Positions 4,853 through 38,039 of a DNA stretch of 64,000 nt are shown here, piece after piece. The stretch's first letter is position 1; the number at the start of each line of letters is the position of its first letter. The notes below the pieces were generated by a model. It ran no database searches, was not told the origin of the DNA, and saw nothing but the letters and a program-made list of their open reading frames with translations. The position numbers and the translations under genes are program-made. Origin of the DNA: Mustelus asterias (taxonomy: Eukaryota); NCBI RefSeq assembly GCF_964213995.1, contig NC_135830.1:9486001-9550000 (forward strand), written 5' to 3'.

Positions 4853-4909
4853 AAATAGATCTTTGCTTGCAGCCAGCTGCTCGAGTTACGAATCTCTTTT
4901 TCACACTAG

Positions 4910-6265: not shown

Positions 6266-6344
6266 GTTAAGTATTGGGTTTGTTCTCATAGCAGCAAACA
6301 ATCTCCTCTTAATCCCAGAATGCTTCCCGAACCTTGAGTGTCAG

Positions 6345-15180: not shown

Positions 15181-15439
15181 GAATCAAACAGCAAATGCTA
15201 TGGCCATAAAAATATATTCTGGCAATGGTGCTGAAGAATTCAGATTCAGATCTTACCGCAATCTGAGCTAAGCTGTTCCGACGCTACAACACTGTCATCT
15301 AACCGCCAATGCTGCAATTTGCCCAATATTGCAGGGTTTACAAATATCAGGTCAAATCCAACGCCGCAAATTACCATCAGTCTACTCTTGATTATCAGTA
15401 ACGTGACGGAAGGGGCAATAAACAATGATATCAGGAGGA

Positions 15440-16030: not shown

Positions 16031-16154
16031 AAATGTGTTTATTCAAGAGGCACTTGTCAGACAGACTTGTTCCTGGGATACAAAAAAATGCTAAAATCGA
16101 AACAAAGCGCCAAGTTAGCATGGATAGGTTAGATTAAAACACTTGCAGTCAGTT

Positions 16155-16219
16155 TCCTTGGTGATCTCGTGGCTCGGATTAGGCTCTTTCACCGCAGCGG
16201 TTCGATTCCTGGTCAGGGA
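16155..16219 (+). pseudogene. tRNA-Glu(TTC) pseudogene
   Basis: TCCTTGGTGATCTCGTGGCTCGGATTAGGCTCTTTCACCGCAGCGG-TTCGATTCCTGGTCAGGGA; 5' T-stem segment deleted, several mismatches. Confidence 0.85.
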
Positions 16220-16434
16220 TTGAAGATTTATTGTTTTCTTGCAGCCCATGATTTAAGTGGAATTGGAATTACTTCCTGATCGAAAACAGGAGTGATATTG
16301 GTGCCAGTTTCAACAGTACAGAGAAAAATCCGTCCAATTCCACAAACCCGTCAATTACCCACAACAATTTGTATTTGCATTGCCTCTTTTGGTTCCTCCA
16401 GTCAAAATGAATAATGATATATTCTCGGAGAATT

Positions 16435-16733
16435 CCTATTGTAGAGAAGGAGGTCGGTCGGCCCATCGAGTGCGCACCGACAACAATCCCATCCACGCCC
16501 TATTCCCGGAAACCCACATGTTTACCCTGATAATCCCGCTGGCAGGCGGGTCAATTTAGCATGGCCAAGCAACCGAACTCACACATGTTTGGAAAGGAAA
16601 CCGGAGCACACGGAGGAAACCCACGCAGACACGGGGAGAACGTGCAAACTCCGCACAGAGTGACCCGAGAAATTTAACCTGAGCCACTGGCGCTGTGAGG
16701 CATCATTGCGAACCACTGTGAAACCATGCCGTC
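16435..16733 (-). mobile_element. HE1 SINE
   Basis: Head, V-domain and CR1-like tail on the reverse strand. Confidence 0.85.
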
Positions 16734-17339
16734 CTATTCTACTGCATTTTATTTTACTGCAGTGTTAGTACCAACCTGTGATAAACCATTTTGTGGTAAT
16801 TCTGCTGATCAACATTAACTTATCAGCGTTAATGGACGGTGGTTTCCAGCCCCAAGTTGGGGGGCACTGTTTGTACAGAAGGAGGTTTGTACAGAAGAAG
16901 CAACTTTGCTGCTTTTCTGGGTGAACTCCAGCTCTCCATTCCTCCGGCAGCGTCACCGTTCAAACTGAGTGTTTCTCCATCCCACGCTGTTAATCTCAAA
17001 GCTCCTGCCTTCTGAATGAAAACTGCCTCCACTTCACTGGAGGTCGGAGAGTTACAATTAAAGGTCTTCTTGTCACTGAGTCCGAGATTTGGACCCAGAC
17101 CTGCGAGGTATTTGTGTCAGTGGAAACAACAAAATCTACTCCATCAACAGCCAGATCTTAGCCCACATCACCATCTATATCGTCAGCGCTTTGTATCCTA
17201 TTTCTCTCTCTTTTTTTGTTCTTGGCATGTGAAAGTTCCAATTCAGACACAAAAGAGGAAATCTACCTACCACTGATTCCCGCAGAACTGGTACAAACCT
17301 GGAAGGAACGCAGGATTTTTACGCAACAATAAACCCACT

Positions 17340-17411
17340 TTCCCTGACCGGGAATCGAACCCGGGCCGCGGCGGTGAGAGCGCCGAATCCTAACCACGAG
17401 ACCACCAGGGA
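17340..17411 (-). tRNA. tRNA-Glu(CTC) with A14>C substitution
   Basis: TCCCTGGTGGTCTCGTGGTTAGGATTCGGCGCTCTCACCGCCGCGGCCCGGGTTCGATTCCCGGTCAGGGAA; one difference from the vertebrate consensus. Confidence 0.93.
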
Positions 17412-17661
17412 AGCTGGCCCAAGCTCTTTAAAACATTGATTTATCTATGAGCCTTCTGCCTTTTATTTTTATTTCAGACTTTTTATTCACCAAAAACAAG
17501 TTTCTCCTTTAAATTGTCATGTTTAGATCGAACCCAAGGGACTGTTCAGCCAATGAAAACAGCGAAACCTGTGAGCTGCAACATGAAATCGACCGTGAGG
17601 TGAAATAGTCCCGCAAGTTGGTGATGTGGCACTTTCAATTTCCAACACCCACCAAACTCAT

Positions 17662-17962
17662 CACTGTGGCTTCTGTGAAACTTGCAAGGTAACACACGGC
17701 AGACATTCACCACGGAGAGCAACTGGCAGAACTCATTTATGAAACATTATCCTGTCGCTTCTCTTCCTGTTTCTGTCGCTGCCTCTCACCCAGCTCCCTC
17801 TGGTTGTCCATTTCCCAGGGTCAGTTAGCTGCTTGATACAGACACAGAGAGTTGGTGAACCCGATCTTCACCTGGAAAGCAAGGAAAGCGAATGGATGAC
17901 ACACGGCATTGAGAGGAGATGGAGTTTAGAGATAACAGTATAAGGAGACACAGATATCTCAT
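17662..17962 (-). pseudogene. Highly decayed antigen-receptor leader + V segment with RSS heptamer
   Basis: MRYLCLLILLSLNSISSQC signal peptide; tttccag|G-EDRVHQ; 3' end SAVCYLAS (like SAVYYCAS) followed by CACAGTG; internally deleted, no recognisable nonamer. Confidence 0.4.
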
Positions 17963-18772
17963 CTTCCTGATCCAGTTCCTGATTGCAGGAACGTACACAG
18001 TGCCAATTATCGACTGTCACACTCTCCTTCCAGCCATGAGCACGGAGTTAAGTTTTGAAGTGTTTGAAGTCTTGCTACAGTTATTCAGGGTTTTGTTGAG
18101 ACCACATTTGGAATAGTGTGTTCAGTTTGGATCTCCCCATTTTAGACAAAATAAAAGCAAAATCTGAGGATGTTGGAATCTGAATCAAGAACAGAAAAAG
18201 CTGGAAAATCTCAACAGCTTTAACGAGAAAGAATAGATAGCATTGAAAAACTGCAGGGATTCTATCGTTCTATGAGTTTGATAGGGTGGATGCGGAGACA
18301 TTATTTTCCCTGGTCCGGGAATCTAAAGCACGTGGGTACAATCTCAGGATAAGGCGCTGATGATTTAAGACTGCGATGAGCAGACATTTCTTCACTCAAA
18401 GGATCGTGAATTTGGGGAATTCTCTGTGCCAGAGGGTTGTAGATGCTCCATCATTAACACATTTCAGTTCGGGTTGGATAGATTTATGATCTATTCAGGA
18501 ATGAATGGAAGCAGGGAGATGGAATTGGAACAAATGCTCAGCCACAAATTAATGTTTCCATTCTAATTTTTAAGCTTAATGGTATAATGGAAGCATGTAT
18601 ATAATATTATATGTAATATGTCTGAAGTCAATAGTCATTCAATAATGTTGGTGACAACAGGTAACAGTACAGCCAGAAATACTTGAGCTATTTTTCATTG
18701 ACCACACGGACCCATTGCCAACACACAACTGTTTGCCTATGAATGCAGATGGTGAGAAGACAGTAAAATCAC

Positions 18773-18846
18773 CGTCCCTGGGTGGTCTCGAACCACCAAC
18801 CTTGCGGTTAGCAGCCGAACGCGCTGACCGATTGCGCCACAGAGAC
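18773..18846 (-). tRNA. tRNA-Asn-body gene with mutated anticodon GCT (Ser); probable pseudogene
   Basis: GTCTCTGTGGCGCAATCGGTCAGCGCGTTCGGCT-GCT-AACCGCAAGGTTGGTGGTTCGAGACCACCCAGGGACG; TTTT terminator 4 nt downstream. Confidence 0.9.
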
Positions 18847-19877
18847 TCAGACAGCAACTACCCACGATATTCTAAGCTAGGGTGTCAATAACCACAATTC
18901 TCTTTCTGCAAAACCTGTTCCAGAACTGCAGCATGACCGCACCGTTTTGAATTCTATCCAAGTATCTTTGGTTACGTTGATCCCGCTGCATTTCTGTTGT
19001 GTGTTGGTTATTCTCTGTTTCCTATGAACGTGTCGGTAAAATGAATCCATGTCTCTTATCACAGGGAGGAATTCAACGGGAGGGAAGGGAACTGACCACC
19101 AGAAGCCCAGCGATCCAATAGTTCCCACTCAATCATCAATAACACCATTCACAGCTGCACCTGCATCCAAATATTGTGACCCATTTCCCTCAGGATTTGT
19201 TCCAAGATTTAATATTTTCTTTGTTTTCTCCTCATTTTGAAATGAGACTCGCTTCAATATACAACTCAAATGGAATTGGAAACCTGACGGACTAATAGTC
19301 ACTGGGTAACATAAACCCCATGGTGTTCATTTCCAGATTCACAACACTCAGCTTTTCAATCAAATGGAGGAATCTACTACTGAAACGTTTTGGAAAGTTG
19401 GTTTGAATATTGTTTGTGACTCACTCAGATACTGTTTAAATGATACTCGAAGGTTCAGTGCGCGGGACATAATCCATAATGTTTTTCTGAGCTTGTGTTC
19501 GGTGTATTGCGAGTTTTGAACGGGGTTGAATCTTGTGTCCCGCTTTCGAATCGGGAATCTTTCGTGTGTTGGGTGAATGTGATAATTATTACAAACAGAA
19601 ATGATGTTCTACAACTCTGCAACAGACTGGGGTGTCGAACCGTGCAGTTTGATTGGCCTTCAGAGTTTCTGAAGTGTGGTGTTTTATACATTCACCTAAC
19701 ACATGGAAGGTTTCCTGTCTGAAATAGGAAACGAACTAACTCATCTCTCAGTGTGAGGAAACGTTACCTCATTTTCGTTTGTTATTAAATATTGAAAGAA
19801 AACATTATCTCTCAGCCTAACTGCAGTTGCACTTCCCAAGTGTGAAATGATATTCCACAAAATATCCAGTTAATATA

Positions 19878-20142
19878 AAGTTTATTTATTAGTCACATGT
19901 AAGGCTTACATTAACACTGTAACGAAGACACTGTCAAATTCTCTGGTCGCCAAACTCCGGCACCTGTTCGGGTCAATGCACCGAACCAGCACGTCTTTCA
20001 GGCTGTGAGAAGAAACCGGAGGATCCAAAGGAAACTCATGCAAACACGGGGAGAAAGTGCAAACGTCAAATAGACAGAGACCCAAACCGGGAATCGATCT
20101 TTAGCACTGTGAGATGGCAGTGTTAACTACTGTGCCACAGTG
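19878..20142 (-). mobile_element. HE1-like V-SINE
   Basis: Same subfamily as 12880-13167. Confidence 0.8.
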
Positions 20143-21479
20143 CAACCACCCTCCCCGCTACCGCCCCCACACCCCTCCTAACGCCCCCCCCCCACCCGCC
20201 CCGGCCACCCAGACATGGTAAAAGAGAAAAAATGGCACAAATGTCATGTACTGATTCTAATGTTTCATGTCTGCCGCATGAAAAAGGTTTTTTTTTAGCT
20301 TAAATGTACTTCCAATAATCAGGTTATAAAGTTAAATCAGACTGTACTGTTTAACCATCAAGTCGCTTTTATCCTGAGCGGACTTTGTGTATTGAAGGGA
20401 TAATCACATTCTATTCATATTAGCGCAGGTCCCAGGCGCTAAACGGGGCCGAAATGTTGTCAAAACTCACTGCTCTGAAGTTTACGAATTGAAGTTTATT
20501 CTAATCTTTATGTATACTGTTACAGTCAGATTGCCTGGAAAACGCCAGTGGACATGTTTCAGTTTATTGGAGAGCATGTGCAAAGGAACACCGACCTCAA
20601 TGATCGGGTTTCATCTAAATTTGAATAAAAAACGAACAATGCGAGCGAGCTAACGTTCATTAACACACTGATTTCCGACAGCGCCGTGTATTTCTATGCC
20701 ATGGAGCCCACACTGCTGCAGAGATATATCGAATGCGGTACAAAAATCCCACGCTGGCAGTTCCAGTTAGTCCCCAGCAAACAAGCGCGGCAAATTCAGT
20801 TTCCACCGAGTGACGGAATTTCTTCACATTGCAGCAAAAGAAACCACTCAAAAATAGCAACTGGTGTGGTCCAGTTGCACAACTGTATTAATTGATGATC
20901 GTAACTTATGGCTGTAGAATCATGAAATCATGGAATCCCTCCAGTGCAGAAGGAGGCCATTCAGCCCATCGAGTCTGCGCCGACCACAATCCAAACAAGG
21001 ATTGTTCCCGTAACCCCACATATTTACCTTGATAATCCCCCTTACACTTGGGTTAATTCAGCATGGCCAATCAACCTAATTGATATAAGATTGACCAATC
21101 GATCTGAGATTTGTTAAGTGGTTTTCCACGCCTTTCTCTGCCTACTTGTTCCTGACTGATTATTTACTGATTTATGACAACTATGCCCATTTCCATTTCC
21201 CAGTCTTCAACGTAAATATTTAATGCTTTTTCTGTTACTTTGTAGTTTCATTCAAAGTTCTCCAATCTGGCTGCTCGGCTATTCGGTCCAGCTTTCCATT
21301 CACATCACAAGATTTCGCTTTGTATTGAATCATTTACTAACGCTGACACTCCTGGTGCGAGCTCGCTGGTCCGCAGTAAGGAATGAACATTCGGCTCCGC
21401 TCTTACAGAGAGGCAAAGTTATAGAATTTCCAAAGTGACATTGTTATTGAGTTCAGCTCTTTGCAGATAAATTCTACCT

Positions 21480-21639
21480 GTGACCACACTGCCTATGTTA
21501 GGCCCCGCCCACAGCTTTCCTGTGCTATTCTAACTCTGATCAGTCTCACCTGTGCTGTTTTATGAGATTTTATTGTAGATATTGATGTATGTTGCTTTTT
21601 TCTGTTTGGCACTGTTGGTGTCAGCAGTCCAATGGGGTG
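21480..21639 (+). pseudogene. Orphan signal-peptide exon (MYVAFFCLALLVSAVQWG, 21585-21639) with lymphoid-type promoter motifs
   Basis: RUNX-like ACCACA, GC box GGCCCCGCCC, ETS TTTCCTG and E-box CACCTG within ~100 bp of the ATG; phase-1 end followed by GCAAG instead of GTAAG; no V exon follows. Confidence 0.4.
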
Positions 21640-22917
21640 GCAAGCTATACTTCCACTCTGGAAGAGGATTTCACATACTGCAGAGTTACAAATTGAGGGA
21701 ATATCATATGGAAATATCTCAGACCATTCATTATTCTATCACTTGCAGGAGTGGCAATTATGTCGCTATCCAAATAGCAAGGACAGTGAAGGAATAAAAA
21801 TACCAAAAATGTATTAATTGCATACGTATGTTGCCAAACATGAGTGTTAAACTGCTACTTTGGTAAATGAAAACTTCAAGTCATCTGTTTTCGGGGATAC
21901 AACAATTATTTCCAATCCACTTGTAAAACTTAACACTGCTGTAGACTCTGTATATTCTTACTGAAATAATTTGAAGCATAATCCAAAAAAAAATTCTAGT
22001 GGTGTTGATCGTATGCAGAGCGCTGCAGAATTGTGAAAGAATTGAATTACCATGAAGGCATATTTAAAGTATATTGCAGCCACATAATATTATGCATTGT
22101 CATGAATTTGCTCTACAATTTTCAAACAAGTTATTAATTCTGCGATCGCAGTAATAAATTGTTCAGAATGAGGGTCATAAGCCATGAATTAGTTGAATCA
22201 GCAGTTACTACAAAAATAAAGAAATACATTAAAAATATATAGTTTAATTTCTGAAATCTGCCTGTTCTCTGCCTACAACCATGTTTCCAAAAGTTTCAAA
22301 TCAATAGAGGGATGGTATCCAAAAGATGTAACTGCTCAGTGCCACTGAGTTTAAACAATGCCGAAACGCCATAGCGTTTCACAATTTTTAACATTTCAGA
22401 GTCACCCAGAAACAATCTCCTCAGCAGCAAAAACATAAATCGCATCACTCAGGGGAGTAAACCCCTTTCAGAGAGAAACAGCTCAATTCTGCAAACAGAC
22501 AAACAGAATCAAGTGCAACATTGCAAAATAATCTCAATATAAAATGCAGCAAAACAGCTCATCATTACGTAATAAATTAAAGGTTAAACTGACGATTTTA
22601 ATGGAGGAATTGAAACTGAATTTAGTGTAGTTGGATCATATTAAATATATAAATTCATATTAAGCAAATACATATCGAAATTTTAGCACATTTTTCAGCT
22701 TGTGTCATACTTCAAACATGATAAAATCTGCAGCGATTAGATGTCATCGAAAATAAACATTTTTGTAATGCCCAACTGTTTAAAAGATTTCATGTATTTA
22801 AAGTTAGCCAGTCACACAGCTGCATATCAACAGCAAATCACAACAAAAGGGGACTGGATCCCTCCGCTAAAACATTTGTCAAGAAACAGCGGAATTCTGC
22901 ATCCCCTTTTCATCTGA

Positions 22918-23043
22918 ATCACATGAGTCATTCCAAAAAAATCACAAATCAGAATCCACCCAACCACATTTCAGTGAATTAATATTATTAAAATAGACCA
23001 AAATGTAAAACAGAGACTCAGAAAAAATTACTTAATAAATGGC
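22918..23043. repeat. Direct repeat copy 1 (in the J-side intron of the IgH gene)
   Basis: ATCACATGAGTCATTC...CTTAATAAATGGC, aligns with 23428-23551. Confidence 0.95.
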
Positions 23044-23053
23044 TGCTTCTTAC

Positions 23054-23415
23054 CTGAAGTTACAGTCACCTTGGGGTCCCCTGTCCCCAGGATCCATGGT
23101 AACCACTGCTATCTTTTGCACAGTAATAGATTGCGGTGTCTTCGCTCTTGAGGCTCCCCATGTCCAAAGCGAAGATATTGTTTGAAATGTTTTTGCTCGC
23201 AATAAATCGATTCTGAATCGCAGTGGCGTATTCCCTGGTCGATAAACTAAAGTAGTAAATCAACAATTCCAACCCCTGTTGCGGAACCTGTCGGATCCAG
23301 TGCATGCCGTCGCTTCCAAGATCGAAGCCGCTCGTATTATAGGTCAGTCTCAGGCAGCCTCCGGGATGCCCGACCGCTGCCTCGGACTGACTCAACACAA
23401 CATCCGACTGGACAC
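23054..23415 (-). pseudogene. Germline-joined immunoglobulin heavy-chain VDJ exon (IgM-type VH), defective
   Basis: tacag|[75 protein letters not shown]; no RSS; first Cys replaced by Tyr; 2-nt insertion before (K)VTVTS; donor G|gtaag. Confidence 0.93.
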
Positions 23416-23427
23416 CTGTAAAAATAT

Positions 23428-23551
23428 ATCACATGAGTCATTCAAAAAAACACAAAACAGAATCCACCCAAACACATTTCAGTGAATTAATCAATTATTA
23501 AAATAGTTCAAAATGTAAAACAGACTCAGAAAAAGTGACTTAATAAATGGC
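23428..23551. repeat. Direct repeat copy 2 (in the leader intron of the IgH gene)
   Basis: Aligns with 22918-23043. Confidence 0.95.
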
Positions 23552-23658
23552 CCCGAGGACTAATCTTTGTCAAATAATTGCTGACTCTGGAATATTCCAG
23601 AGATAGACTAACACTGAGACAGTGACATTGAGAGACTTTGACAATAAAAACTACTCAC

Positions 23659-23704
23659 CCGACAAGAAAGCCAGCAGCAAAATAATATAAATCGCCGCGC
23701 TCAT
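23659..23704 (-). pseudogene. IgH leader exon MSAAIYIILLLAFLS(G)
   Basis: 46 nt, G|gtgagt donor, splices in phase to GVQS; TATTTAAAT box ~95 bp upstream. Confidence 0.9.
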
Positions 23705-26700
23705 CCTTCTGAGAATTTGGGGGAAATGGTTGTGTCAGGAAATCAGTGAACAAACCACCTCCCGGACTGTTGGATTCCGGTCCCAGTGAGCGCCATTTAA
23801 ATACCCGGCAGAAGGGTGCGGCTTTCCAGGCGCCGCCTATTGATTCCCTGGTGGAGGTGGCAACTGGATCCACGTCCCACCTTCCACTACCCCAACAGAG
23901 TGGACTCCAAGGTTTACAATAGATTATTATTAAAATTGACATTTTATATGTATCGGGATATGGTTTGACTGAATGGACTCATTCTAATCCGCTGGTCCCA
24001 TTACTGAAACTGCATTTGCGCATCTGTTAATAAAGAAAACGAAGTTCCATGGCAAAGTGTCCCTGCTTCCCTACACCGTTAGGTAATGAACTGAATATAA
24101 AAACGAGTAAAATACTTGAGGATGGAATGGGGCGTCTGTCGTGTCTAATTTGCAACCGGTCTCTATCTGATCACAACAATGAAGTATCATCTATCAGACG
24201 AATTGTGATCCATTTATGTAACTAAATGCGGGGGGGGGGGGGGGGTGAACAAAGTGATTCTATTTAAAATGTGAATGGCGATCCTTATGCATTTTGGATC
24301 TGCAAATAACAAGAGCCACCTCATTTTCTTTTACATTATTGCTCCTTACATTTGTCGAACTGCCCCTGAGCCTAACATGGCCCTGTGCCATTAGCACGCT
24401 TGCCTGATATTTAACTAGTGAGTTGACAGAGAAATATTTACATTTACATCAGCATCTGACACGAAGTTAATGAATCGGAACGGTTACGCGATCAGTAAAA
24501 TTCTCCTTCGGCATCCAAATCATTGCAGCTTATTTGATCGGCTGTCTAACATTCACTGATGTTGGGAGCACAGGATATCAGGACTTTGCGGCATATTACA
24601 CAATATCACAAGAATAAATGTGTTACATTCCACTGAAGCATATTTCTCCACTCATTCGCAGCACCCGTACTTCACTAAATTACTATTAAACGGGCTTTAA
24701 GAACGAGCATACTCTTGATTTGGAAATTCTATGAATTAAATCGTGTCCTCGTTCTAATGTCCTTGAGGGAAGAAATCTGCTGTCCTTACCTGGTCTGGCC
24801 TATATGTGACTCCAGAGCCACAGCAATGTGGTTGACTCTCAACTGCCCTCCAAGCGTGACTGGAGAAGGGCAATTAATGCTGGCCCGCCAGTGGTGCCCA
24901 TGTCCCATGAATGCATAAGAAAATGTTAAATGTTCAAGTTACTATTTTATCATCTTGTTTAATCTCAAAGTGGACACGATTGTCACTGAATAAATTTCTT
25001 CAGATGGAATACCATTTAAATCTGCCATTGCTGTGCAGCTGAAACGTTTATTATTTGAATAGATAGATCCCATTTTGATCATTCATATTTACGTTAATCT
25101 GCCCCGCACGGTATTTAAAAGCAACCCAGCCGACTGCAGTCAGGGAGGCTGGAAAGTCCGATGTCAACAACAGGAAGCAACTGGGGTGTTTGTGCAGTAA
25201 ATAAAATATCTGTTTGCTCAGTATTGGCCACTTGGCTGCCAGCCAGCTTCGAACATTTAACATCGTCAATGACGTCTATTTATAAAGAAATCTACCCAAC
25301 GACAACGCTGGTGATAATCTTATATTTTTAGATTGTGAACGGATGCGAAGTGTTCCGATTTCCAAGAAAAGAGAAGTTATTCAATTTGTGTTGTCCCTCT
25401 TAGCTACAACAGTCCTATGGAGGATCGCGCCAACAGATTATAACATTTGATGGATGTTTTGATGGTGAACAGGAAATACAAGCAGGCTACAAGGCACAGG
25501 ATACATTTGGAAGAGTTAGTCATATTGCCCTCCATCTGGAGACAAATGTAGTTGAGTCCAGGGTACGATGGAGGATTCAGTTCACTGGTGGATCAGAGAG
25601 GTTCCCATCGTAACTGTTAGTCGGTATTCCAAATTCTACTCAAATTGCCTTCAAATTCACCAGCTACTCTGATGGGATTTGTTCCCATATCGCCACAGCA
25701 TTAACCCGGCATCTCGATTACTGGTCCAATTCCATTAAAAATATGCCACTGTCGGCCCGAAAAAATAAAGAGGTGACGGGGGTAATGTAACAAACAGTGA
25801 CATTTGGATGCCAGGCCATTTTGTTTCTGGAATCAATGAATGAATTGATGGATATATCCATAGACGGGCCCGAAAGACGTTGTTCGACATTCTCCTCTTT
25901 GTTCTCCAGTACTTCATTAATTGAACCAGGTCCTTTATTTCATCTGTGTCGACTACCTTCATTCCTTCCAGAGTTTTTCAACGAATTCAATCCCCAGACT
26001 ATCAGGAAATATCGACTGTCCATCACCAGGAGATATTCCTGCTCTTCTGCTGATTCTTCCACTGCTGATGGTGAATCTTCATCTCAAGGACAGAAAGAGG
26101 GAACATGAATAGTATGTCGACGGAGGGTTGTAATATCTGGACCATATGGTTGTTTCATGTACAACAAATCACTCAGCATATGTTCGCCCAAAATAGTAAA
26201 GCTGACAGACGAAAAACTTAATGATGTGGCAATGTAACTATTGGGCAGCTGACATTGTTTAATTACGTCCCAAAACAGAGTGATAATCAATAAAAATTAA
26301 AGATTCATTGTCGTTACAATCACCATACACTCCAGTTAGATATCAGCAGTTTCTGTGATTATAGAATCCCGACAGTGCAGAGAGAGGCCATTCGGCCTAT
26401 CAAGCCTGCACCAACAACAATCCCACCCAGGCCCTATCCCCGTAACCCATGTATTTACCGTCCTAATCACCTTGTGTACGTGTGTGTGTGTGAATGAAAG
26501 AGAGAAATTGCGTGTGGTGTGAATAGCTCTCTCTCTCTCCTTCAAATTCACTGTCATCACCAACTTCTCAAACAAACTATGACACATGCCTTTGTAAACG
26601 ACCATCCGATCAACCATTCCTCACTAAAGCCCTTGGATGTTTTACCTTTCTAATTGTGTATAGTAACGTTTGTTTTTATTCAGAATCTGTGGAATCTTAT

Positions 26701-27465
26701 ACCTTTATTCACTTGCGAACCATCGGAAACAGTGCCTCATGCAATGCCCAAGGAGGGTCTGACCAGCACAATCGTAATGTGGTTCAGCGAAACATAAATA
26801 TGGAAAGAAACCACTGTAATTATAAAGAGGCCTAGGACTGGTATAAAAAATATCTGATAATTTCCATATGTTCTTCAGTCTGAACTTGGTTGACCCTCCT
26901 ACGTGATGAGCTTTGGAGAATTTTATGATGTTTAGCGTGCTGTTAAATGCGTAAATGTGTCGTGAGAATGCAGGTTTTCTGGTGTGGATGACCGGTGGCT
27001 TCTGCCGGCATCGTTTATACTGTGTGGAACTATATGTTGCAGGTGACTTTTACTTCAGTTCTGGGAGGACATTCGACAGAATATGACTATAATTGCCATT
27101 CCGATTCTCTTCTGTTCTAATGTCACTGAGCTATGCCGGCTTCAGCATCATGGCTATAATATTTCTTAGGTAATTCCTAACAATGAATATTCCACATGGT
27201 AAGCATGTCTTACATTTAGCTATTAGCTAATTAATTCTAAACTATGTTAGGTTGCACGGATCTCCGCCCCCCTGCGGTCTCGCAACATTCTAAACCCCTC
27301 CCTGAATGAACATGGAAAGTTACTGCTTAATCAGTTTGTTTAACTAACTGTAAATAATTGTGGAAGTTAATTGCCTCCCTGTAGATTTCCAATGGTATAA
27401 ATGTGGGTTTATTTGACCTTGCCACAGAGAATCCTGTGATCAACCGTCATTGTTTCTCAAACAGA

Positions 27466-29646
27466 ATGCATGGGCGAATAACTGGTGTAGTTTATGGCAT
27501 TTACTATCCAATTATTGCTGCCATTGGGGTTCCGGGTAAGTCATTCTACTAAATCATTAACTTGACGTGCCGCTGTTTTATGAAGTAAGTGCTGAACATG
27601 GCAATAAAGAACATGACATAATTGTTTCCAGGTATCTTCCAAAACCTTATTTGCTCAGTGGTATCCTATCATTTCATCATTTAATTATGCATTTTATTGA
27701 TGAGAAGCGAAAAATGGTATATATTGACGGGAGTTTCAAAGAGTGAGAGGCGACCTCGTTGAAAGAGAATTCTCAGCAGGCTCTTACTCATGAAGTCTCT
27801 GACACATTCAATACTCTGTGGCTGATCTTGCCAGCATGCATGAACGGAAGCGAGGCTGTTCATGTTTTTGAAACGTATAGTTGCTGTGAGAATACGTTTA
27901 CAGCAATACAAACTTTGGGCATGATTCCACAATCACCGGACACAACATCCCAGTATATACTCTGTCAAGCCTGCTGAGAATTCTCTTTCAACGAGGTGGC
28001 CTCTCATTCTTTGAAACTCCAGTCAATATATACCATGTTTCACTTCTCATCATGGAACAATTCATATCATTGCTCAGTAGAATGGAAACTGCTGTTTCCA
28101 AGCCAGCAAGATTTCTGATGCAAACCATCTGATGCTCCTTAAATTGTATTAACTTGACACACCCAACTACTGAAAAGATTCCCGTGGAATTCCAACAAGC
28201 CAAACTGAATCCTTATCACATTATACAGTTTAACAATGCAACTGTAACTGATATGTCAACCGTATCTACAGACTATTTCGTTTATGGGATACATGATACA
28301 AAGGTTGAATGTCAAATTTCGTATACAATCTGGGGATCTTCAGCCTTTCAGTCCTTAACTTTGCAATTATTGCCCGGAATCACATTGCCTTTCTTTCTCA
28401 CTCCGTTCCTCACATGCTTTCCTTAAGCGTATTTCGTCGTCCAGTTATTCAGCATTTAACATAATTAATATCTGCTCCTGTTGTTAGATGTCAAATTGTA
28501 CTGCAGCACTTTCCTGTTAAGAGACTTGGGAAACCTTTTGCCTTAAAGGTGCGACAGAACTGGAGGTTGCCCTTGTAGCTCTTTCTGAAACACAATTGAC
28601 CTTGAAAAAAAACAAGAATAGCCGTCTCTTCTAACGAAGGTGAACTGGCAAACATGTCCAAATAGGTCTGTCACACCCAAGTGCTTGTTTGGAATTCGTT
28701 GAATAACTTTACAACTTTAATTTTCTTTTTCCTCTCAGTTAACGTGGTGGCGATTGTGATTCTGTCCCGAGGAAGGTGTGGTCTCTCCAAATGCATTACT
28801 CGGTATCTGATTGCCATGGCAGTGACGGATCTCCTTGTCGTTGTCGTCGCTGTGATATTCAATCGGATTATTGGCATTTATTTTCCAGTAAGTTTTATGT
28901 CGTTGACTCCAGCCTGTACTCTGAGTTCTGTGATAATCTATGCAATCATGGAGTGTTCTGTTTGGCTAACCTTATTTTTCACCTTTGATCGTTATGTAGC
29001 CATTTGCTGCCAGAAATTGCGTACAAACTATTGCACTGAAAAAACAGCGGATGTGGTGATAGGAACGGTTTGTTTGTTGAACTGTTTGAAAAGGATTCCG
29101 TCGTACTTTATATATGAGCCAGTCTATATAGTGAACAATGTGCCTTGGTTTTGCAAGATAAAATCAACCTACTACACTTCCTTCTCATGGGCAGTCTATG
29201 ACTGGTTTGCACGTGTATTAAATCCTATTCTGCCTTTCCTTCTGATTTTGTCATTTAATGCATTGACCGTGAGACACATCCTGGCGGCCAATAGATCCCG
29301 CCAGAGACTCCGGACTCACAGCAGTGCAGAGAATCAGAATGATCCAGAAATGAAGAACAGGAAGAAGTCTATTGTTTTACTTTTCACCATCTCGGGGAGC
29401 TTTATTCTGTTGTGGATGACATACATTGTGGATTTCCTCTATGTGAAAATTACAAATGAATCTTATTTCGCAGGGTCCAATTTCAACGACCCCAAATTCA
29501 TTCGCCAGGAAAGCGGAAACATGCTTCAGCTGCTGAGCTGTTGCACTAACACGTGTATTTATGCAGTGACGCAGAGGAAATTCAGAGAGGAGTTAAAAAA
29601 TGCAGCAAAATATCTTGGCAGTCTCATTGTAAAAATAGTAAAGTAG
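27466..29646 (+). CDS. Class A GPCR, GPR139/GPR142-like; exons 27466-27535 and 28739-29646, 325 aa, intact
   Basis: Exon 1 MHGRITGVVYGIYYPIIAAIGVP G|gtaagt; acceptor ctctcag; NVVAIVILSRGRCGLSKC, YLIAMAVTDL, FTFDRYVAICC, DPEMKNRKKSIVLL, SCCTNTCIY; 7 hydrophobic segments. Confidence 0.92.
27698..28052. repeat. Inverted repeat, ~85-bp arms (27698-27782 and 27968-28052), inside the GPCR intron
   Basis: GGAGTTTCAAAGAGTGAGAGGCGACCTCGTTGAAAGAGAATTCTCAGCAGGCT and its reverse complement. Confidence 0.9.
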
Positions 29647-30144
29647 AAATTCCAAAGGGTTTGGTTTAAGTTGCAAATGGAAATGTATCGTGTCATCTCT
29701 GGCTTTTTCTCCTTGACATCTGAGGTTGAATTGGTCTTCGGCAGTTCTGTAAATAGGTGCCATCATTTTCACTTCTGTTCCACTGAGATGCCATGTAAGA
29801 AAGTTAGTAATGTGGATGAACAGAATCACTGGACAGCCAATTAGTTTTTAACAATAAACATTTATGAAACATGAAAAGACTGTCAATAACACAATCCTCC
29901 TTCATTCCACTCATCCCTTGCTGCAGTGAACACACAAACACTGAGGGCGCTCCCCCTTGTGGCAATGTGAGGTCAATGGTCTCTGTCTGGGAGATCACTG
30001 AATCCTCAGATTACTGAAGGATCGTGTTGAAACATAGAAAAGTTGGAGGATTGTGCTGCGGTATTTTTCTTATTCCTATTATTTTTATTGTAATGCTGAC
30101 GAACCTATTCACAGAATTGATACCAATCTCAGAAACAGCTACAA

Positions 30145-31275
30145 GTGAACTCGCGCACACACACACATTCACAGGCATACACGCTCAGACAGACACAGGC
30201 AAACTTGCACACACACACTTTCACAGGCATACACTCTCAGACAGACCCTGGCAAACTCGCACACACACGCAAACACATTCGCAGACAAACATTCTCAGGC
30301 AAACAGAGGCAAACTTGCATAAATTCGAAGACATACACTTTCAGACGGGCACAGGCAAACGCGTAGACACCCACAACACACATGCAATCACAGACATGCA
30401 GACAACGTAAAACACTGAGACTTGCACAAATGCACACACCTACTCAAACACAAACACTATCACATACACTTTCCCAAACATAATGAGAGGCTGAGATCAT
30501 GGAGGGTTGATGTCAATTTCAGTCCAAGTAACCTGCTGGGCACTAAAATAATAACAGAAGCAAATCTAAAGCTCGGTGTGTGGGTTTTATTGCGAAATGA
30601 GAAACTATATAAATATACCCCCATAGCTCAGGGTGGGAGAGGAATTGATGATTTGTCGACTGTCTGTGATCTCCCTGCAAAAATATTAAATTTGAGAGAT
30701 TATAAATTTTGAATTCTAGCTTGAATAAACCAGAGACAAGATTATGCTGAAAATAATCAGAATGACTGCCAGTATCTGTCGAATGAGAAAAAATATGTTA
30801 ACGTGACCTTTCACCTGAACTGAAAAAACATAGTTGTAAGGAAGTACCAAGGCCAATAAATGCTGCAAAGGGTACAGAACAAAATGATAGGATGGCACGC
30901 AGATAGGATAGGATAGCAAGCAGGAACACTAAATAAAAAAGCAACAGTGGTACATGTTGGATGTAAAAATGTGGAAATGGAATAATAGCCACTGTATATC
31001 ATCTGAAATATAAAACACACATACAAGCACATACACAAACACGCACACACATACATACACATATACACACAAACGCACGGAGAAACGCACACACACACAT
31101 CTACAAAGGCACACAAAACAAACGTGCATGCCCAAACACACAAAAGTACAAGCACACACACAAATGTGCACACACAAATGTACACATACACACACACACA
31201 TGTACACAAACACATGCAAGCAGCCACAATCATACGCAAACGCACAGAAAAACACCGCACAAACACACACACAAA
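30145..31275. repeat. Two degenerate CA-rich microsatellite tracts (~30145-30480, ~31014-31275)
   Basis: Low-complexity CA repeats. Confidence 0.85.
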
Positions 31276-32804
31276 TTCACGTTGCAAAGTTGGAGATGGG
31301 ATGGGGCAAGATTACAATCTATCATTGCTGAAATCAGCATTGATTCCCTGCTTGTTGGCGACATACTGACGTTTATCCTTATGTTTGATTACAACATTTG
31401 GCACCAGAGGGCAGCGAAAGACATTGTGAAGTCTGTTGGCTCCGTTTTTATAATGATATTTCAATTCTTTTCCGAAAGTCGATATTTTATTAACATAATG
31501 CTGGAAGGTTTACACAGAACCTCTCTGTGTGAAAAACCCATGTTTACTCTATAAAACAAAGTTTTCAAACCAGAACCAAGACTTCTCAGCCAGAGCAGTT
31601 CAGTCCGTGCAATGAACTATCAATTAGGTGTGAAAATATGCTGAAGTATTTGGATGGCAGTCTAAAAACAGAATTCGGGTCTCATCTGATGACAGAGTCC
31701 TACCAAGAATGAAGGAGTAGTCATTCTCATTTCTAACTATCTGTGAACTTTAATTCACAGAGAACCACCATCAGTTTTCTCAGCTGAAGGAAGATTTACT
31801 AAAAGTGTTCGAACTCATCATGTATTTCGATGGTGTAAATCAGGAACAAACTTTTCTAGCAGCAGGAGGCTCTTTAAACTGAAAACAATGATTTGAGGCG
31901 ACTGGAAAAATCAGACATGGCATGACAGCGAGTTGTGAGTTAGACGCGCTGCGTGAAAGGGCGCTGGCAGCAGTTACAATAGTATCTTTCAAAAGAGGAG
32001 CAGGTACATTGTTGCAGAGGTGTTTGTTTACAGGGCTCTGGGGAAAGAAGAGGAGAATGATATTAATTGAATTTCTCCACCAACCAATCTAAGAATGTAT
32101 GGCGAGCCGAATTGCCATGTTCTGTTGTATTTCATTTACTAATTGCCTCCCTTCGTTTCTTATTGTAAATCAAAGCTTCACCGTGGAGTCAAGAAGCATG
32201 TCCGCGTCCTTTTCTTCTTACCAGGCCTGCCATTTCCCTTCGGTGTCCTATTGCTCTTTCTATATTTATTGAGTATCCTTGAATTTAATTGTTTTATTTT
32301 TCATCCCCTCTTTGCTTTCTTTCTTTTTAAAAATTCCCCTTGCACATATTTTAATAAGATGGCACTGACGGAGGAACTTCAATTTCTTCATAGATAAGGA
32401 TCTCCAGTGAATTTGAGGGGAACTTGCTCATTTCGGTTTTTCCTGCGCCCTTCAGATTCCAGGTGGTCGAGTTCCCGGGTTTGTAAACCATTGTCGAAGG
32501 ACCCATGGCAAGTTGCTGCAATGTGGATAATACACGCTGGAGGCGCTGTGGAGAAAGAGAATGTTAAATTTGTGGATGAGGTGCCAAACATCAAGGCTGT
32601 TTTACCCTCGATTGGGTCTTGCCCCATGATTGCTGTTGGAGATGCGCTCGTCCAGGGAAGTGAGCAGTGTGTGTATCACACATTTTGCATGCCAGACTGG
32701 GGAGTGGCTTCATGGAAATCAGGAGGCGCATCGCTCCCAGAGAGCAATCTTTCTATGTAATTAGACTTTAAAGGTAAATTGTGGATTTATACGGCTCTTC
32801 GCAA

Positions 32805-32995
32805 TACCAATGGACATTTCAAAACATGTTACAGCCAATGTTTTATAATAAGTGCACTCGCTATTATAACAGAGGAAGTACACACGGAAAATTAACCCAA
32901 ACAGCAATGTGGCAATGATCACGGAATCTGTTTGTGTGATGTTGATTCCAGAATAAACATTGACCTGGACACCAGGGATAACTCCCTTACCCCTC
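32805..32995 (-). mobile_element. DeuSINE-like remnant
   Basis: TTACAGCCAATG...CAAACAGCAATGTG...GGACACCAGGGATAACTCCC resembles the reverse Deu domain. Confidence 0.55.
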
Positions 32996-33321
32996 TGTAT
33001 ATTTTATTTACAAGGCACGATTAGTATCTGTATTATCATATTACATGACAGTTCAAAGTTGGCATTACAAAAATTGCAGTAAAATTCAACTGCTTTCAGT
33101 ACATTACAACACAATCTGAGATGTATTTTATTTACTGTTAAGACTTATATTTACTTTTTTTTGTCAAACACTCTCTGATTCATTCTCTGTCCACTTCTGT
33201 GATACTTGAATTGAAAACTCGTTTGAGGCCAGGCAGGAATCCAGGGAGACACAGGACTTATTCATCAACTTTCAAGAAGAAACGATTGAAAAGAATGAGG
33301 TAAAAAACCAAGGAAGGAACC

Positions 33322-33460
33322 ATTTGCATAGTGCTCACACTGCTCGCTGCGAACTGAGAGATAGAGGGTTTATACTATGGCACTGACAACAGACAGCAAA
33401 CAAGGCTCCAAATTCTGCTTGGACATCTAGTGAGCTATTCAGCTATGGAAGCCCCCTGAC
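33322..33460 (+). promoter_or_regulatory. Ig-light-chain-style promoter stub: octamer ATTTGCAT, TATA-like TTTATA, ATG GAA GCC CCC
   Basis: Perfect octamer 33322-33329, TTTATA ~40 bp later, ATG at 33445, then stop and unrelated sequence. Confidence 0.35.
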
Positions 33461-34502
33461 CTCCCTCTGTGTCTCCCAATCATACTCTATCTCCCGCAAC
33501 CATCAATTATTTTCGTAATCATTCAGTGCCCCCTCTCCCACTGCATCCTCCATTCCATTTATGACTCTCCCATTCCCCCTCTCTCCATTATTCCGTCTGC
33601 CTCTCCGACTCACGCTCTCCCTTCCTCAAACAATCCTTCATTACTTCTTCCTCTTTCAAGATCCCTTTCTGCTTTTCTCAAGCCCTGTCGTGGGTCTAAT
33701 GAATAGGAGCAGGAAAGGGTTAAGTGCCGCCCCAAAACTGCTCTGTCATTACCTCTTGAACATTCCACCTAAAAACCTTGAGCAAATGCACCCTTCCTGA
33801 AGAACACTGACGGAAACTGCGCTCTTTTCTCCAAACGTGGCCAGGCCAAAGTCCTCTTCCATTGCAGCAAGGCGACCATTCTCGTGTAGCTCAATTGCTT
33901 TGGAATGAAGGCCAAAATTGTATTTGCCTCCTGGATTGCTGTCTCCGCCTGTAGGTTACATGTGTATACAAGGACGGTGAGATATGTCTGCACGCCAACA
34001 TATAATTGATTCTCACCATTTAAATGTATGATTTTATTTCTCTCTACTTTTCTCGCCAAGGTGAATAACTTCTTAATTTTCCGCAATATATTCCTGTTGA
34101 TCACTTTCTTGCAAACACGCTCATGCTCCCCTATCTCTTTGCAGCCTCTATGTGTCTCGTTTTGCTTTGTATCAATGCTAAATATGCATTATCAGAAAAA
34201 AGGTAAAGTTAAATGGATTCCTTCTCTTTATTAATAGCATTTATTGGATCACAGCGTTTCAGGAAACGTTTCTTTCCCAACCCAGGACAGTAAATCCGGA
34301 TCCATTCCCTTTCATAAGGACAGTAATAGCATTCGGTGTCAGGGTGCTTTTAGTAACTGCCTGCGACCTCACGATATGTCAATCTAGGGACAAAGGAAGT
34401 GAGCTGAGAACATGCTGAAACACGACAGCAGAATATAGAAGGCGAGGATTAAAAGGGTGTCTTCAAATGTCGGGCAGCCCTTTTGCAGAGCGGACAGGTA
34501 GA

Positions 34503-34943
34503 ATGCGACTACTCAGCATCTGGGTTGTGTGGGGAGCATTCTTGGCAGGGAACTGTGGAGGAAAGACATTTCGCCCTTTCTCTAGTTTCCCAACCATGGG
34601 TTAAATCAGAATTTGATCAGCTGCAGATCGTAACTTTTCTGTTCTTCTTTGAGATGTGGCTCATGCAGATACTGTGACTCAGTCGCTCTCGTCAGATGCA
34701 AAGACAGAAGGAGAAGTGGTGACTTTAAACTGTAGCTATGAGACTGCAATGAGCGGCTATATGTTACATTGGCACCGACAGTATCGAGACACACAGCCCG
34801 AGTCTGTACTGCTGAAGGCCAGTAATAATTATGAAGAGAAAGCAGATTTTGCGGAAACACGTTTTTCCGTGGAGCTCCAGATCGCGACAAAATTCACCAG
34901 TTTGACTATCTCGAGTTTGCAGCTGACAGACGCTGCCGTATAC
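34503..34943 (+). pseudogene. TCR alpha/delta-type V pseudogene: leader 34503-34548, V exon 34654-34943
   Basis: MRLLSIWVVWGAFLA / DVAHA-DTVTQS..EGEVVTLNCSYET...LHWHRQY..QPE..L..RFSVELQ...TSLTISSLQLTDAAVY; leader donor is GG not GT; truncated just before the second Cys; no RSS. Confidence 0.85.
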
Positions 34944-36201
34944 AAAGATACCTCAACCCCGTTTGTTGTTAAGCATTGACAGAAACAAATTATCTCACAG
35001 CGTAACTACATTTATTCTTACCCAAGCATTAAATGATATTCTGCAAAATTTTCAGTCACGAGGACAGACGGAAGATTTGGCGCAAATTTAACTTTATGAT
35101 TCAAATGTTAGATCAATTCCTGTGCCGCATGAATAAGGGTTTCAGCCGAATTGGACTTCCACAAAACAGGCTCTGAAGTTCAATCAGACAGCACTGTTTG
35201 TCCTTCCAGACCAGTCGCTTTTATCCTGAGCGGAATTTCTGGACTGAATGGATTACGACATTATATTTGCAGAGGTCCCAGTTCTAAACAGGGCAGAAAC
35301 ATTATCAACATTCACTGCCCTGATGTTTCTGAATTCATGTTTATTGTTGAATTTGAATGGAACCGAGTATCAATCAAAATATTGAAGATTTACTCTTCAC
35401 TATTTCTGAGAAAACACACACAGCAAAATCGCCAGTGCTTTCAGCTGGCAAGGGGTGTTTGGACAGTGGGAGGCTGGAATATTGCTGCTTTTCCCTGTTT
35501 CACACGCTGTAGAATGAGGAAAACAGAATAATTAAAGGGTTAGTTAGAATTGAATAATTGAATGGATTTCTAATGGGTTCGAGGCAGACACAATTTAATG
35601 CTAATAGTCGCAGAACACCCATTGCAGACACATACATGTCACCAGGAATCAGCTCTCCTATAACCGGTGCCGTCTCCCTTTAAGCCTTTCTGTGTCTTGT
35701 CTGTAAACAAATATTCGGACTGTCCCGAAGCTGCTTTTAGGTAGAATTCCTGATGTGCTGGAACGAGAATATTTTCAATATCTGCGAACAGTTACTTTCA
35801 CTGCCAACGTCAGAGTCAATGTTCCAGTTTCATAAAAACGGGAAAGGTGCCTTGACTGTCTCTGTTCAGTCAGACAATTCACCGTTCATTCTCCTGTGAT
35901 TCCGGTTCCCAAAGAGTTTCTAAAATATCATAACTTTGACAGCCATAATAATATATCTCTTGAAAACAATGTAAGTTTGCTATCGATGCTGGTATAATAT
36001 TTCTGTTTCCACATTTATTCTTTTAGTTACATTTTCTCAATGTTTTTACTGGCCACGGTTGTGAGTTTGGAATTCGCCCCGATACTGAACCCAACACGGT
36101 ATCTCACGGCCCTCTGCTGGGGTGACATGGAACTACAAAGTGCAGCTTCCTCCCACCTGTGAGTCTTTGGGAGTCAAGTTTGTGTTCAACAATTTCCGAT
36201 C

Positions 36202-36425
36202 ATGAATTCTGCTAGGATTTTGTTTATGCCCTTTATTCAAATTTTCGACTGCACCTGGGGTGGAGAATCTGTTTTGTTATGAGGCCTCCTTCTCCAGTCA
36301 AAGAGAGCCCATTTCTATATATGGGTCGTGGAGATTCTGTCACCCAGCCGCTGTGCTCAGCAGTTCAGACAGAAAGAGAAGCAGTGACTTTGCAATGTAT
36401 CTACAAGACAACATTTTACTCCCTG
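36202..36425 (+). pseudogene. Fused TCR V 5' fragments
   Basis: MNSARILFMPFIQIFDCTWGGESVL* (leader/V start) followed by GRGDSVTQPLCSAVQTEREAVTLQCIYKTTF (36330-36420), a TCR V alpha/delta FR1. Confidence 0.65.
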
Positions 36426-36869
36426 AAAAGGGGAACAGTCTGAACAAATCAGTTAAGTTGCTTTAGTACCCCTTTGCTTCGACACTAAAGAAAGCAAATT
36501 AGTCTGTCAATGCTTGGCGCTGTTCTGATTTATAACTTCGTAAATTTCTCCGAAGACTTGGCGTTCTCTCGACTTCGTCGTCACCAGGATTTGAAAAGAG
36601 AACTCCAGCATTGATTTCCGCAGACTTCGCATCGTTTTCCCAAATACATATCAACAGTAACAAAGTCAGTCTCCAAAGAGCTCCAATTTAGATACCCGGG
36701 CAGCATTTTATTCTTGGTGTTATTTACAGTAAACACTGAAAAAACTCATCAGGAAAATCCGAACGTGCAATGAAAAGCATTTGCGGACAGACGGTGCCAG
36801 ATTGAAGACCCAACTCTGCAAACTGAAACCTGTATGGATGGTAGGCTTGTGATGTCACAGTAGAGTCAC

Positions 36870-37972: not shown

Positions 37973-38039
37973 TGGAGGACGGGGCGATCTATTACTGTGC
38001 AGTGAGCCACAGTGCTAGATTACAGTTAAAATGCTGTAC

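Follow-up and report, generated by a model that had tools for sequence, protein, structure and literature searches.

A patchwork of broken immunoglobulin and T-cell receptor pieces in the antigen-receptor complex of the shark Mustelus asterias

Genes and gene remnants of the interval

The window analysed here, a stretch of 64,000 nucleotides of the Mustelus asterias genome (NC_135830.1, positions 9,486,001 to 9,550,000), lies at the 9.5 Mb position of scaffold C71, the antigen-receptor complex of this shark (AgRC, PMC12227049). Across megabases of C71, IgM clusters take turns with 7TM-receptor genes, tRNA genes and V genes of TCR alpha/delta. The spaces between the IgM clusters hold V exons of TCR alpha/delta as well as cassettes that are presumably NAR-TCR, going by their V-D-D-J layout with a supporting V; the scaffold also carries TCR alpha/delta J and C segments (a J-alpha array and C-alpha at 18.37-18.42 Mb). 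An IgM V-D-D-J-C cluster lies at 7.06 Mb and a D-J-C-delta unit at 7.12-7.14 Mb. The features of the 20-kb mosaic and its edges, numbered from the first letter of the window, are the following.

15186..21743, no strand: left duplicon (tRNA block, V relic, non-coding flank), of a high-copy family on C71 and small contigs
16155..16219, plus strand: decayed tRNA-Glu relic, 77% like the tRNA-Glu at 17339
17339..17412, minus strand: tRNA-Glu(CTC) gene (ARAGORN and Rfam)
18773..18846, minus strand: tRNA-Asn body with anticodon GCT, called Ser (ARAGORN and Rfam)
20509..20748, plus strand: TCR alpha/delta V relic, 5' part lost (V piece 20509-20694, heptamer 20709)
21743..21746, no strand: breakpoint between left duplicon and IgM J-C intron (2-nt microhomology, no RSS)
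21743..26307, minus strand: IgM cluster fragment (J-C intron, joined VDJ, leader, promoter, upstream flank)
23054..23704, minus strand: germline-joined IgM VDJ pseudogene with leader intron (leader 23659-23704, VDJ exon 23054-23415)
23428..23549, minus strand: insert in the VDJ leader intron, a copy of the gene's own post-J intron (~22918-23043)
27466..29646, plus strand: intact two-exon rhodopsin-family GPCR gene (exons 27466-27535 and 28739-29646; 325 aa)
34503..34943, plus strand: TCR alpha/delta V pseudogene (leader 34503-34549, V exon 34654-34943)
34944..36905, no strand: right duplicon, starting at the V breakpoint (5' V stub at 36321-36416)
36870..38046, plus strand: C-rich low-complexity tract, then a V 3' end (V piece 37972-38046, heptamer 38008)

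The original prediction of an IgM-type joined VDJ without C exons was borne out, the VDJ exon matching the Pfam V-set (E 1.7e-11) and no Cmu2-4 exon being found in the window, the 50 kb before it or the 40 kb after it. The VDJ is fused without RSS, its first Cys has become Tyr and its J is frameshifted; the junction is identical in four assembled copies (94-100% identity, CDR3 alike save one base), in all of which the V is broken. From 22320 to 26307 the fragment is 66-81% identical to the IgM cluster at C71:7.058-7.064 Mb, and the leader intron, the promoter and 1.3 kb of J-C intron are retained, in agreement with the claim that the pieces are genomic and not retroposed. The insert in the leader intron matches the post-J intron at 89.8% over 128 nt; neither the IgM V genes that are still unjoined nor the joined gene of C166 has it.

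The TCR alpha/delta V pieces were likewise confirmed, at 20509-20694, 34654-34943 and 36321-36416, with one more just outside the mosaic at 37972-38046. The first carries one stop, has lost the second Cys and has an RSS with a 24-nt spacer; it shares 65% amino acid identity with the V relic at C71:11.021 Mb, and against a V profile made from 35 local V exons its sister copies reach 30-35 bits. The second (V-set E 1.8e-12; best PDB TCR matches to alpha/delta chains) has a leader with a lost splice donor and is cut just before the second Cys, so that the RSS is gone too, while its 92% copies on C138 and C112 are complete with a 23-RSS. At the V 3' end near 38 kb the nonamer is interrupted by a LINE, whose RT was found. 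All Ig and TCR pieces of the mosaic are broken, and the window is dead cargo, the GPCR gene and one or two tRNA genes excepted.

Of the three tRNA genes predicted, two were called by both programs; the third, at 16155-16219, is a relic without an Rfam call or an ARAGORN call down to -ps80. The tRNA-Asn body reads GCT at the anticodon, where sister copies have GTT. The GPCR gene, called GPR139-like in the original prediction, is whole, with an intact ORF (Pfam 7tm_1, E 8.8e-20), and it belongs to a local multi-copy family (39 other matches among the best 40 scored). A further leader and V with heptamer and an orphan leader were not confirmed, as neither the Pfam V-set nor the local V profile matched at the candidate places (21300-21760, 33100-33450, 16800-17200); 21085-21743 was also rejected as a V gene. 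The supposed octamer stub was set aside as chance, two octamers occurring in 22 kb against 1.1 expected (at least two in 61 of 200 shuffles). Thirteen short pieces gave no Pfam V-set match, and a V-profile match at 55.3 kb was dropped as too close to what shuffling yields (8.7 bits against a maximum of 7.3 bits in 5 shuffles). In other sampled stretches of C71, chosen for holding matches, V exons are at least as many as here; three sampled stretches hold 0-1 V.

Copies, joints and the origin of the patchwork

Every block of the mosaic is found again elsewhere. The blocks, of 0.6-6 kb, are members of multi-copy families on the same scaffold and move together as duplications of 37-59 kb: positions 1-58.8 kb of the window are collinear with C108, and 21743-59 kb with both C221 and C71:17.36-17.40 Mb, which are 99.96% identical and therefore one locus. 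Segmental duplications are commonly defined by at least 1 kb at 90% identity or more, and long near-identical blocks at several places are what is seen here. When 15001-39000 was cut into 500-nt tiles, 47 of 48 had a match of at least 83% in some copy besides that on C108. In the left duplicon, 16760-19541 has at least 26 other copies (93-96% identity) and 21085-21743 at least 39 other matches (81-98%); the right duplicon has at least six further near-full copies at 82-83%, three sister copies apart. The C-rich tract with the V 3' end recurs at 98% in C108 and C221, and is thus no one-off read error. Among the best candidates scored in seven genome searches (40 of 95 to 6336, and 131 of 2162, so that distant donors may be hidden), 426 of 427 matches fell on C71 or contigs numbered 87 and above, and one on C23. 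By their shared blocks, the small contigs would come from the same chromosome region as C71. As to whether the same mosaic recurs in multiple copies, the blocks recur and long collinear copies exist, but the joint at 21743 stands in two contigs only (the window and C108), which may be two haplotypes.

These comparisons bear on a reading in which the interval is a collinear, decayed part of one TCR alpha/delta locus without any shuffling. The window does lie within the V field of C71 (V matches at 6.5-17.4 Mb), between C-delta copies at 7.14 and 11.04 Mb; the neighbours at 21743 and 34944, however, are not the same in every copy, and blocks lie in opposite orientations. Simple decay is accordingly unlikely; a decayed part of the TCR alpha/delta region, which the original prediction named among its refuting cases, comes near the truth, except that the order is shuffled and not collinear.

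The sister copies also retain what the window has lost. C221 and C71:17.40 Mb carry open Cmu3 and Cmu4 some 8-9 kb behind the same joined VDJ (blastn gave no match to a Cmu1 or Cmu2 exon there), and since complete V genes with RSS survive as well, the truncations in the window are local breakpoints. C138 and C112 keep both IgM flanks and the complete 34.6-kb V, with 22088-25374 absent; they could be read as an empty site that later received the 3.3-kb VDJ piece, against which it has to be noted that both retained sides are IgM-derived. Three loci that differ in age show the same neighbourhood, in which an IgM gene with joined VDJ adjoins a GPCR gene and a TCR V. The left duplicon is 95.7% identical to C325 over 15186-21147, and its tRNA block is closer to C325 (96%) than to C108 (92%), whereas the flanks of that block are 97.5-99% identical to C108, as exchange between copies predicts. 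No RSS lies within 60 nt of six joints, and at four block-end pairs the longest common words are of 3-5 nt and away from the ends, which means that there is no target-site duplication; of the hallmarks of transposon- or RAG-mediated gene capture (target-site duplication, terminal repeats, RSS at block ends), target-site duplication and RSS are therefore absent from these ends.

The original prediction had gone further and seen in the interval a sink that takes up short genomic segments of many immune loci, offering a route by which V genes are exchanged between Ig and TCR. Such a sink would account for blocks of different origin abutting on both strands, for C138 and C112 lacking the VDJ piece and for the 71-81% relatives of the tRNA flanks on another scaffold, C23. 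The donors, however, are local multi-copy families of the same scaffold, the blocks travel as 37-59 kb units, the missing parts survive in sister copies, the joints have neither RSS nor target-site duplication, and the Ig and TCR pieces here are dead. The idea is thus largely refuted already, and a capture sink must be considered quite improbable. As for the proposed route, exchange between Ig and TCR genes does take place in this part of the genome, but intact clusters elsewhere on the scaffold show the route better than the dead window does.

The mosaic is therefore a real patchwork of broken Ig and TCR pieces and no special capture zone. It is best explained (with a probability of roughly 80%) as a patchwork of multi-copy blocks within the IgM/TCR alpha-delta complex that arose through rounds of duplication, deletion and unequal exchange close by, and not by distant capture. 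The C exons of the joined-VDJ IgM gene have been replaced at 21743 by the tRNA/V block, and the TCR V has been cut at 34944 by another block, the sister copies retaining what was lost; from three joints, such junctions appear to be made by microhomology-type repair and repeat-driven exchange, not by RAG. On top of this, RAG acting in the germ line would join segments of intact clusters, giving the VDJ of the window, V to D-delta, and IgM D1 to D-delta.

TCR delta units among the IgM clusters

D-J-C units of TCR delta occur at 19 places in the assembly, three of them on C71, in at least seven sequence groups at 99%, and on C71 they are interleaved with IgM and NAR-TCR cassettes. All 19 carry CLxxxFxP in exon 1, the signature that PMC10322711 gives for exon 1 of TCR delta C, and D segments with 12- and 23-RSS stand before several J; PDB matches did not separate C-delta from other C1 domains. 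Two C-alpha exons (74% amino acid identity), both with the alpha signature and each after a J array, were found through those arrays, as Pfam DUF1968 (TCR alpha C) gave no match in the genome. The same source gives trdc-(traj)n-trac as the canonical order; on C71, the 30 kb leading up to the J-alpha array contain zinc-finger genes and no C-delta, and the nearest listed C-delta is 6.1 Mb away, in a scaffold whose order may be wrong.

Of 19 D segments, seven stand in joined form. A V-D junction common to three diverged copies is thereby germline. The five D-delta junctions are at C138:217.7 kb, C850:36.3 kb, C401:0.9 kb, C71:11.0238 Mb and C119/C96/C436; four of the five were found once each. 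In one of the joins, on the single contig C138, IgM D1 is fused to D-delta, forming an IgM-V/TCR-delta cassette that is likely germline-joined. An IgM cluster and a D-delta of like orientation are also found 55 kb apart, with the cluster upstream. Among contigs of four sequencing runs, which can speak only for presence, none of the 27 pieces listed (of 89) bridges this join; in three of the four runs the unjoined forms are present as loose ends to either side of it, and the C138-specific letters on the J side are missing from the same runs. Some TCR delta copies are likely to be inherited in pre-joined form, one of them with an antibody gene as its partner.

A further possibility is that repeats and lymphocyte reads were stitched into chimeric contigs, with the C-delta count inflated as well. 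The assembly is redundant (C221 duplicates C71:17.4 Mb at 99.96%, and C850 duplicates C71:12.27 Mb at 99.97%), most D-delta junctions are singletons, and C850 joins a V 99.5% like an unjoined V on C154 to a D-J 100% like C71:12.25 Mb, as a T-cell read would. Against this, the joints of the window recur in contigs with substitutions and insertions of their own, C71 alone has three C-delta copies that are 2.1-2.4% apart, the 16 parsed copies encode 11 distinct proteins, and one sequenced sample (which may be the assembled one) holds three D-delta variants, more than two alleles would give. Mis-assembly is hence very unlikely indeed.

Shark TCR genes are held to be translocons and shark Ig genes miniclusters. 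A multicluster TCR beta was reportedly described in the horned shark in 1994. Tentatively, and at somewhat less than even odds, TCR delta may here have switched from one translocon to Ig-style miniclusters, with NAR-TCR/V-D-J-C-delta units amplified together with IgM clusters and some hard-wired by germ-line RAG, including a heritable IgM-V/D/J-delta/C-delta cassette; in that case Ig-TCR "trans"-rearrangement would amount to plain deletion in cis between adjacent units, which now and then becomes fixed in the germ line, and the window would be debris of the same turnover. If true, this would offer a present-day model of how chimeric loci such as TCR mu originate. Taken by itself the 20-kb mosaic is unremarkable, being dead pieces of a published gene complex, and its neighbourhood matters more: several intact, slightly diverged TCR delta D-J-C units among IgM would break the translocon/minicluster rule, and it would have to be explained how a T cell settles on a single delta chain. 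Two questions would become testable, namely whether chimeras of Ig and TCR come about in cis and whether RAG in the germ line is still building new receptor loci. Literature searches, with subscription papers outside their scope, found no paper on multi-copy shark C-delta; Criscitiello 2006 and 2010, Deiss 2019 and Ott 2021 may describe delta copy number or genomic joins.

Comparison with known systems

As in the AgRC (Flajnik et al. 2025, PMC12227049), a single scaffold has IgM clusters, NAR-TCR cassettes and TCR alpha/delta V exons, with many pseudogenes among them, interleaved over ~10 Mb, and also bears C-alpha and a J-alpha array. In Table S1 of that paper, 9 Mb of the white shark are interleaved in like fashion, the entries including "IgM (missing V)" and V pseudogenes. 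The paper reports TCR alpha/delta as a translocon, and for stingray and catshark Table S1 gives a single TCR delta C model apiece; unlike that, a translocon with a single C-delta is not what is found here, D-J-C-delta being present at 19 places and each of two C-alpha exons standing behind a J array. One white-shark NAR-TCR model in the table is marked "(gj)", so that germline joining in TCR delta cassettes is already in print as a hint.

Germline-joined shark Ig (Lee et al. 2000, PMC2193156; PMC5192425) resembles the present case, in the accessible portions of these papers, in its genomic fused VDJ with the leader intron kept and in a junction common to diverged copies with few TdT additions; those portions describe it for Ig, whereas V-to-D-delta and IgM D1-to-D-delta joins are found here too. 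IgM1gj (PMC5192425) has three C domains, CH2 alone missing, and an intact V. The present gene shares with it the germline-joined VDJ and, in the sister copy, the missing Cmu2; identity with IgM1gj was rejected, as Cmu1 was also not found and the V is broken in four of four copies.

Trans-rearrangement between Ig and TCR delta, and IgH-like V in the TCR delta locus (Criscitiello 2010, Deiss 2019, Ott 2021), are presented, in papers that cite these studies (PMC12227049, PMC6795676, PMC5931798), as somatic events in cDNA. The pairing of an IgM V with TCR delta D-J-C is the same here, with the difference that on C138 the joined product stands in genomic sequence.

The window within the antigen-receptor complex

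The window occupies 9486001–9550000 of the 20.4-Mb scaffold C71 and belongs to the antigen-receptor complex of PMC12227049. Matches to IgM V span 5.1–17.4 Mb of this scaffold and those to TCR alpha/delta V span 6.5–17.4 Mb (genome-wide, each of the 131 best of 2162 candidates, those that were scored, gave a match), with C-alpha and a J-alpha array at 18.37–18.42 Mb. In Table S1 of that paper, 9 Mb of white shark hold IgM clusters intermixed with NAR-TCR cassettes, V pseudogenes and IgM entries marked "missing V". In the 30 kb upstream of the C71 J-alpha array lie zinc-finger genes and no C-delta, and a second C-alpha exon, with 74% protein identity to that of C71, is found at C546:236–242 kb, J segments being present ahead of each. 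At the NAR-TCR supporting V, the 23-RSS occurs in tandem with a 61-nt period: twice at C71:7091239–7091300, three times at 12229725–12229847 and five times at C173:99717–99961. Further germline-joined IgM VDJ are present at locus L005 (C166:442.8–443.3 kb), where the frame is open, and at C71:10.9988–10.9993 Mb, upstream of the delta cluster at C71:11.02 Mb.

The original prediction took 16155–36425 for a zone that captures short genomic segments and offers a route for Ig/TCR V exchange. As an observation the mosaic was confirmed in part, and its interpretation found partial support; the window is read instead, with a probability of roughly 80%, as segmental-duplication debris within the complex. 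C108 repeats the whole stretch, and C221 and C71:17.4 Mb repeat it rightwards from 21743; the latter two are 99.96% identical and are a single locus assembled twice. Besides these sister copies, an older pair (C138 and C112) has the GPCR and V in common with the window at 92–95%. The tRNA block has 26 additional near-full copies and the block starting at 34944 has six, while the flank at 21085–21743 has at least 39 other matches (best 40 candidates scored). Across seven block or gene searches, 426 of 427 matches fall on C71 or on contigs from C87 upwards, a tally giving a lower-bound picture, since only the best candidates were scored. The tRNA block is nearer to C325 (96%, versus 92% to C108), whereas its flanks are nearer to C108 (97.5–99%), which is a sign of exchange between copies. 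On the large scaffold C23 (12.25–12.28 Mb), a tRNA cluster lacking V genes matches the window's tRNA flanks at 71–81%. The window is not enriched in V loci: at a 12-bit cut it has 2 in 64 kb, compared with 3–7 per 20–100 kb at five stretches that had been picked for their hits and 0–2 at six others.

Gene pieces in the window:
23054–23415, minus strand: exon of a joined IgM-type VDJ (V-set E 1.7e-11), leader at 23659–23704
Starting at 20509, 34654, 36321 and 37972: TCR alpha/delta V pieces
Two exons: GPCR gene, intact, 325 aa

The predicted joined VDJ was borne out, its leader and exon both being located, and it is a pseudogene in which Tyr replaces the first Cys and the J carries a frameshift. 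Because it retains the promoter, leader intron and J–C intron and is homologous to an intact IgM cluster across 22320–26307, it is genomic and not retroposed, as had been proposed for the pieces generally. In 4/4 copies, its leader intron contains an insert of 122 nt (23428–23549) that duplicates part of the post-J intron of the gene itself. Two of the three tRNA genes claimed were called, the third being only a relic; the GPCR proved intact; octamers are no commoner than chance; and no further leader plus V was confirmed at the places examined with Pfam V-set and a local V profile. The tRNA-Asn body at 18773–18846 carries the anticodon GCT (GTT in sister copies) and, if active, would put Asn at Ser codons. 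A VH relic is present in the left flank. The 1.1-kb C-rich tract at 36870–37971, 98% conserved among sister copies, grew from a short C-run present in older relatives, and the element at 61211–62368, 99.7% identical to insertions variable between sister copies, is a very young mobile element.

Breakpoints and mechanism

Breakpoints account for the truncations in the window. C221 and C71:17.4 Mb retain open Cmu3 and Cmu4 downstream of this same VDJ, and Cmu1 and Cmu2, looked for there, were undetected; in the window and C108, the J–C intron meets the left block at 21743 with 2-nt microhomology. The right block truncates the V at 34654, cutting it at 34944; in C138 and C112 this V is complete and has its 23-RSS. 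These two contigs lack 22088–25374, yet IgM-derived sequence flanks the gap on either side; the absence is read as a deletion, and an empty site into which the VDJ piece was inserted later retains some probability. At C138:890787–890793, the VDJ-removing deletion bears 5 inserted nucleotides, which repeat neighbouring bases in inverted orientation, comparable to templated end-joining. No RSS was found within 60 nt of the six joints scanned, and no target-site duplication around the four block pairs checked. The debris probably arose by duplication, unequal exchange and end-joining within a repeat-rich array.

TCR delta constant genes and joined D-delta segments

A search with the constant region of the whale-shark TCR protein P0001 matched the C and TM exons at 19 places, all open (C71:7.138, 11.043 and 12.271 Mb and 16 small contigs). 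The matched C exons bear the TCR delta signature given in PMC10322711, and are preceded by D and J segments that are flanked by proper RSS. Sixteen parsed C-delta exons, all open, encode 11 distinct proteins and fall into 6 groups at 99% identity; C71 alone has three copies, 2.1–2.4% apart. The remaining three of the 19, also open and more distant (81–83% aa), bring the count to at least 7 groups, which is beyond what haplotype redundancy explains. At least three C-delta loci are very likely real. Three D-delta variants occur within one sequenced sample, which may be the assembled one. At C71:7.06–7.14 Mb the order, on a single strand throughout, is IgM V-D-D-J-C, NAR-TCR cassette, supporting V, IgH-like V genes, D-delta, J and C-delta.

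Among 19 D–J1 loci, the D is unjoined in 12 and joined in 7, with 5 different junctions. One V–D-delta junction is common to loci L147–L149 (C436, C119 and C96), with ~1.7% differences around it and 2–5% at C; shared by diverged contigs, it is therefore germline and predates their duplication, and the existence of a germline V–D-delta join is highly probable. These three copies keep the 23-RSS, so that D-to-J joining is still possible. Locus L133 (C138:~217700–217730) has an intact IgM V with 23-RSS and an IgM D1 fused, with one shared base and zero additions, to a trimmed D-delta, J-delta and C-delta following. This V(23)-(12)D(23)-(12)J layout would be ready to rearrange. Joins confined to single contigs (C138, C850) might be T-cell reads in the assembly: that of C138 is found in one contig only, and the C850 partners are both unjoined elsewhere, as such a read would also give. 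However, both reconstructable junctions (2/2, C138 and C850) lack added bases, as reported for germline Ig joins in PMC2193156, and an unjoined twin of the C138 J region is absent from the 9 clusters compared (87–99.5% by tile, mostly 94–98%). These points favour a germline origin of the C138 join, which is held to be slightly the likelier. Single-occurrence V-to-D-delta joins, germline or somatic in origin, are L198 (C850), where a C154-type V is linked to the D-J-C of C71:12.25 Mb, and L136 (C401) and L151 (C71:11.0238 Mb), in both of which the joined V is a pseudogene.

Comparison with known antigen-receptor loci

It is already known that IgM and TCR V genes interleave, that IgM can be germline-joined and that Ig–TCR delta chimeras occur, and the window mosaic is by itself debris, beside which the TCR delta copies and joins are a side finding. 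No description of multi-copy shark C-delta was found in the literature searched, whose coverage leaves key shark TCR papers outside; the C-delta multiplicity and D-delta joins have probably not yet been described, and the novelty of the multi-copy finding is not secure. PMC12227049 describes TCR alpha/delta as a translocon, with one delta C model tabulated for stingray and one for catshark; in contrast to that translocon, the M. asterias assembly has C-delta at 19 places.
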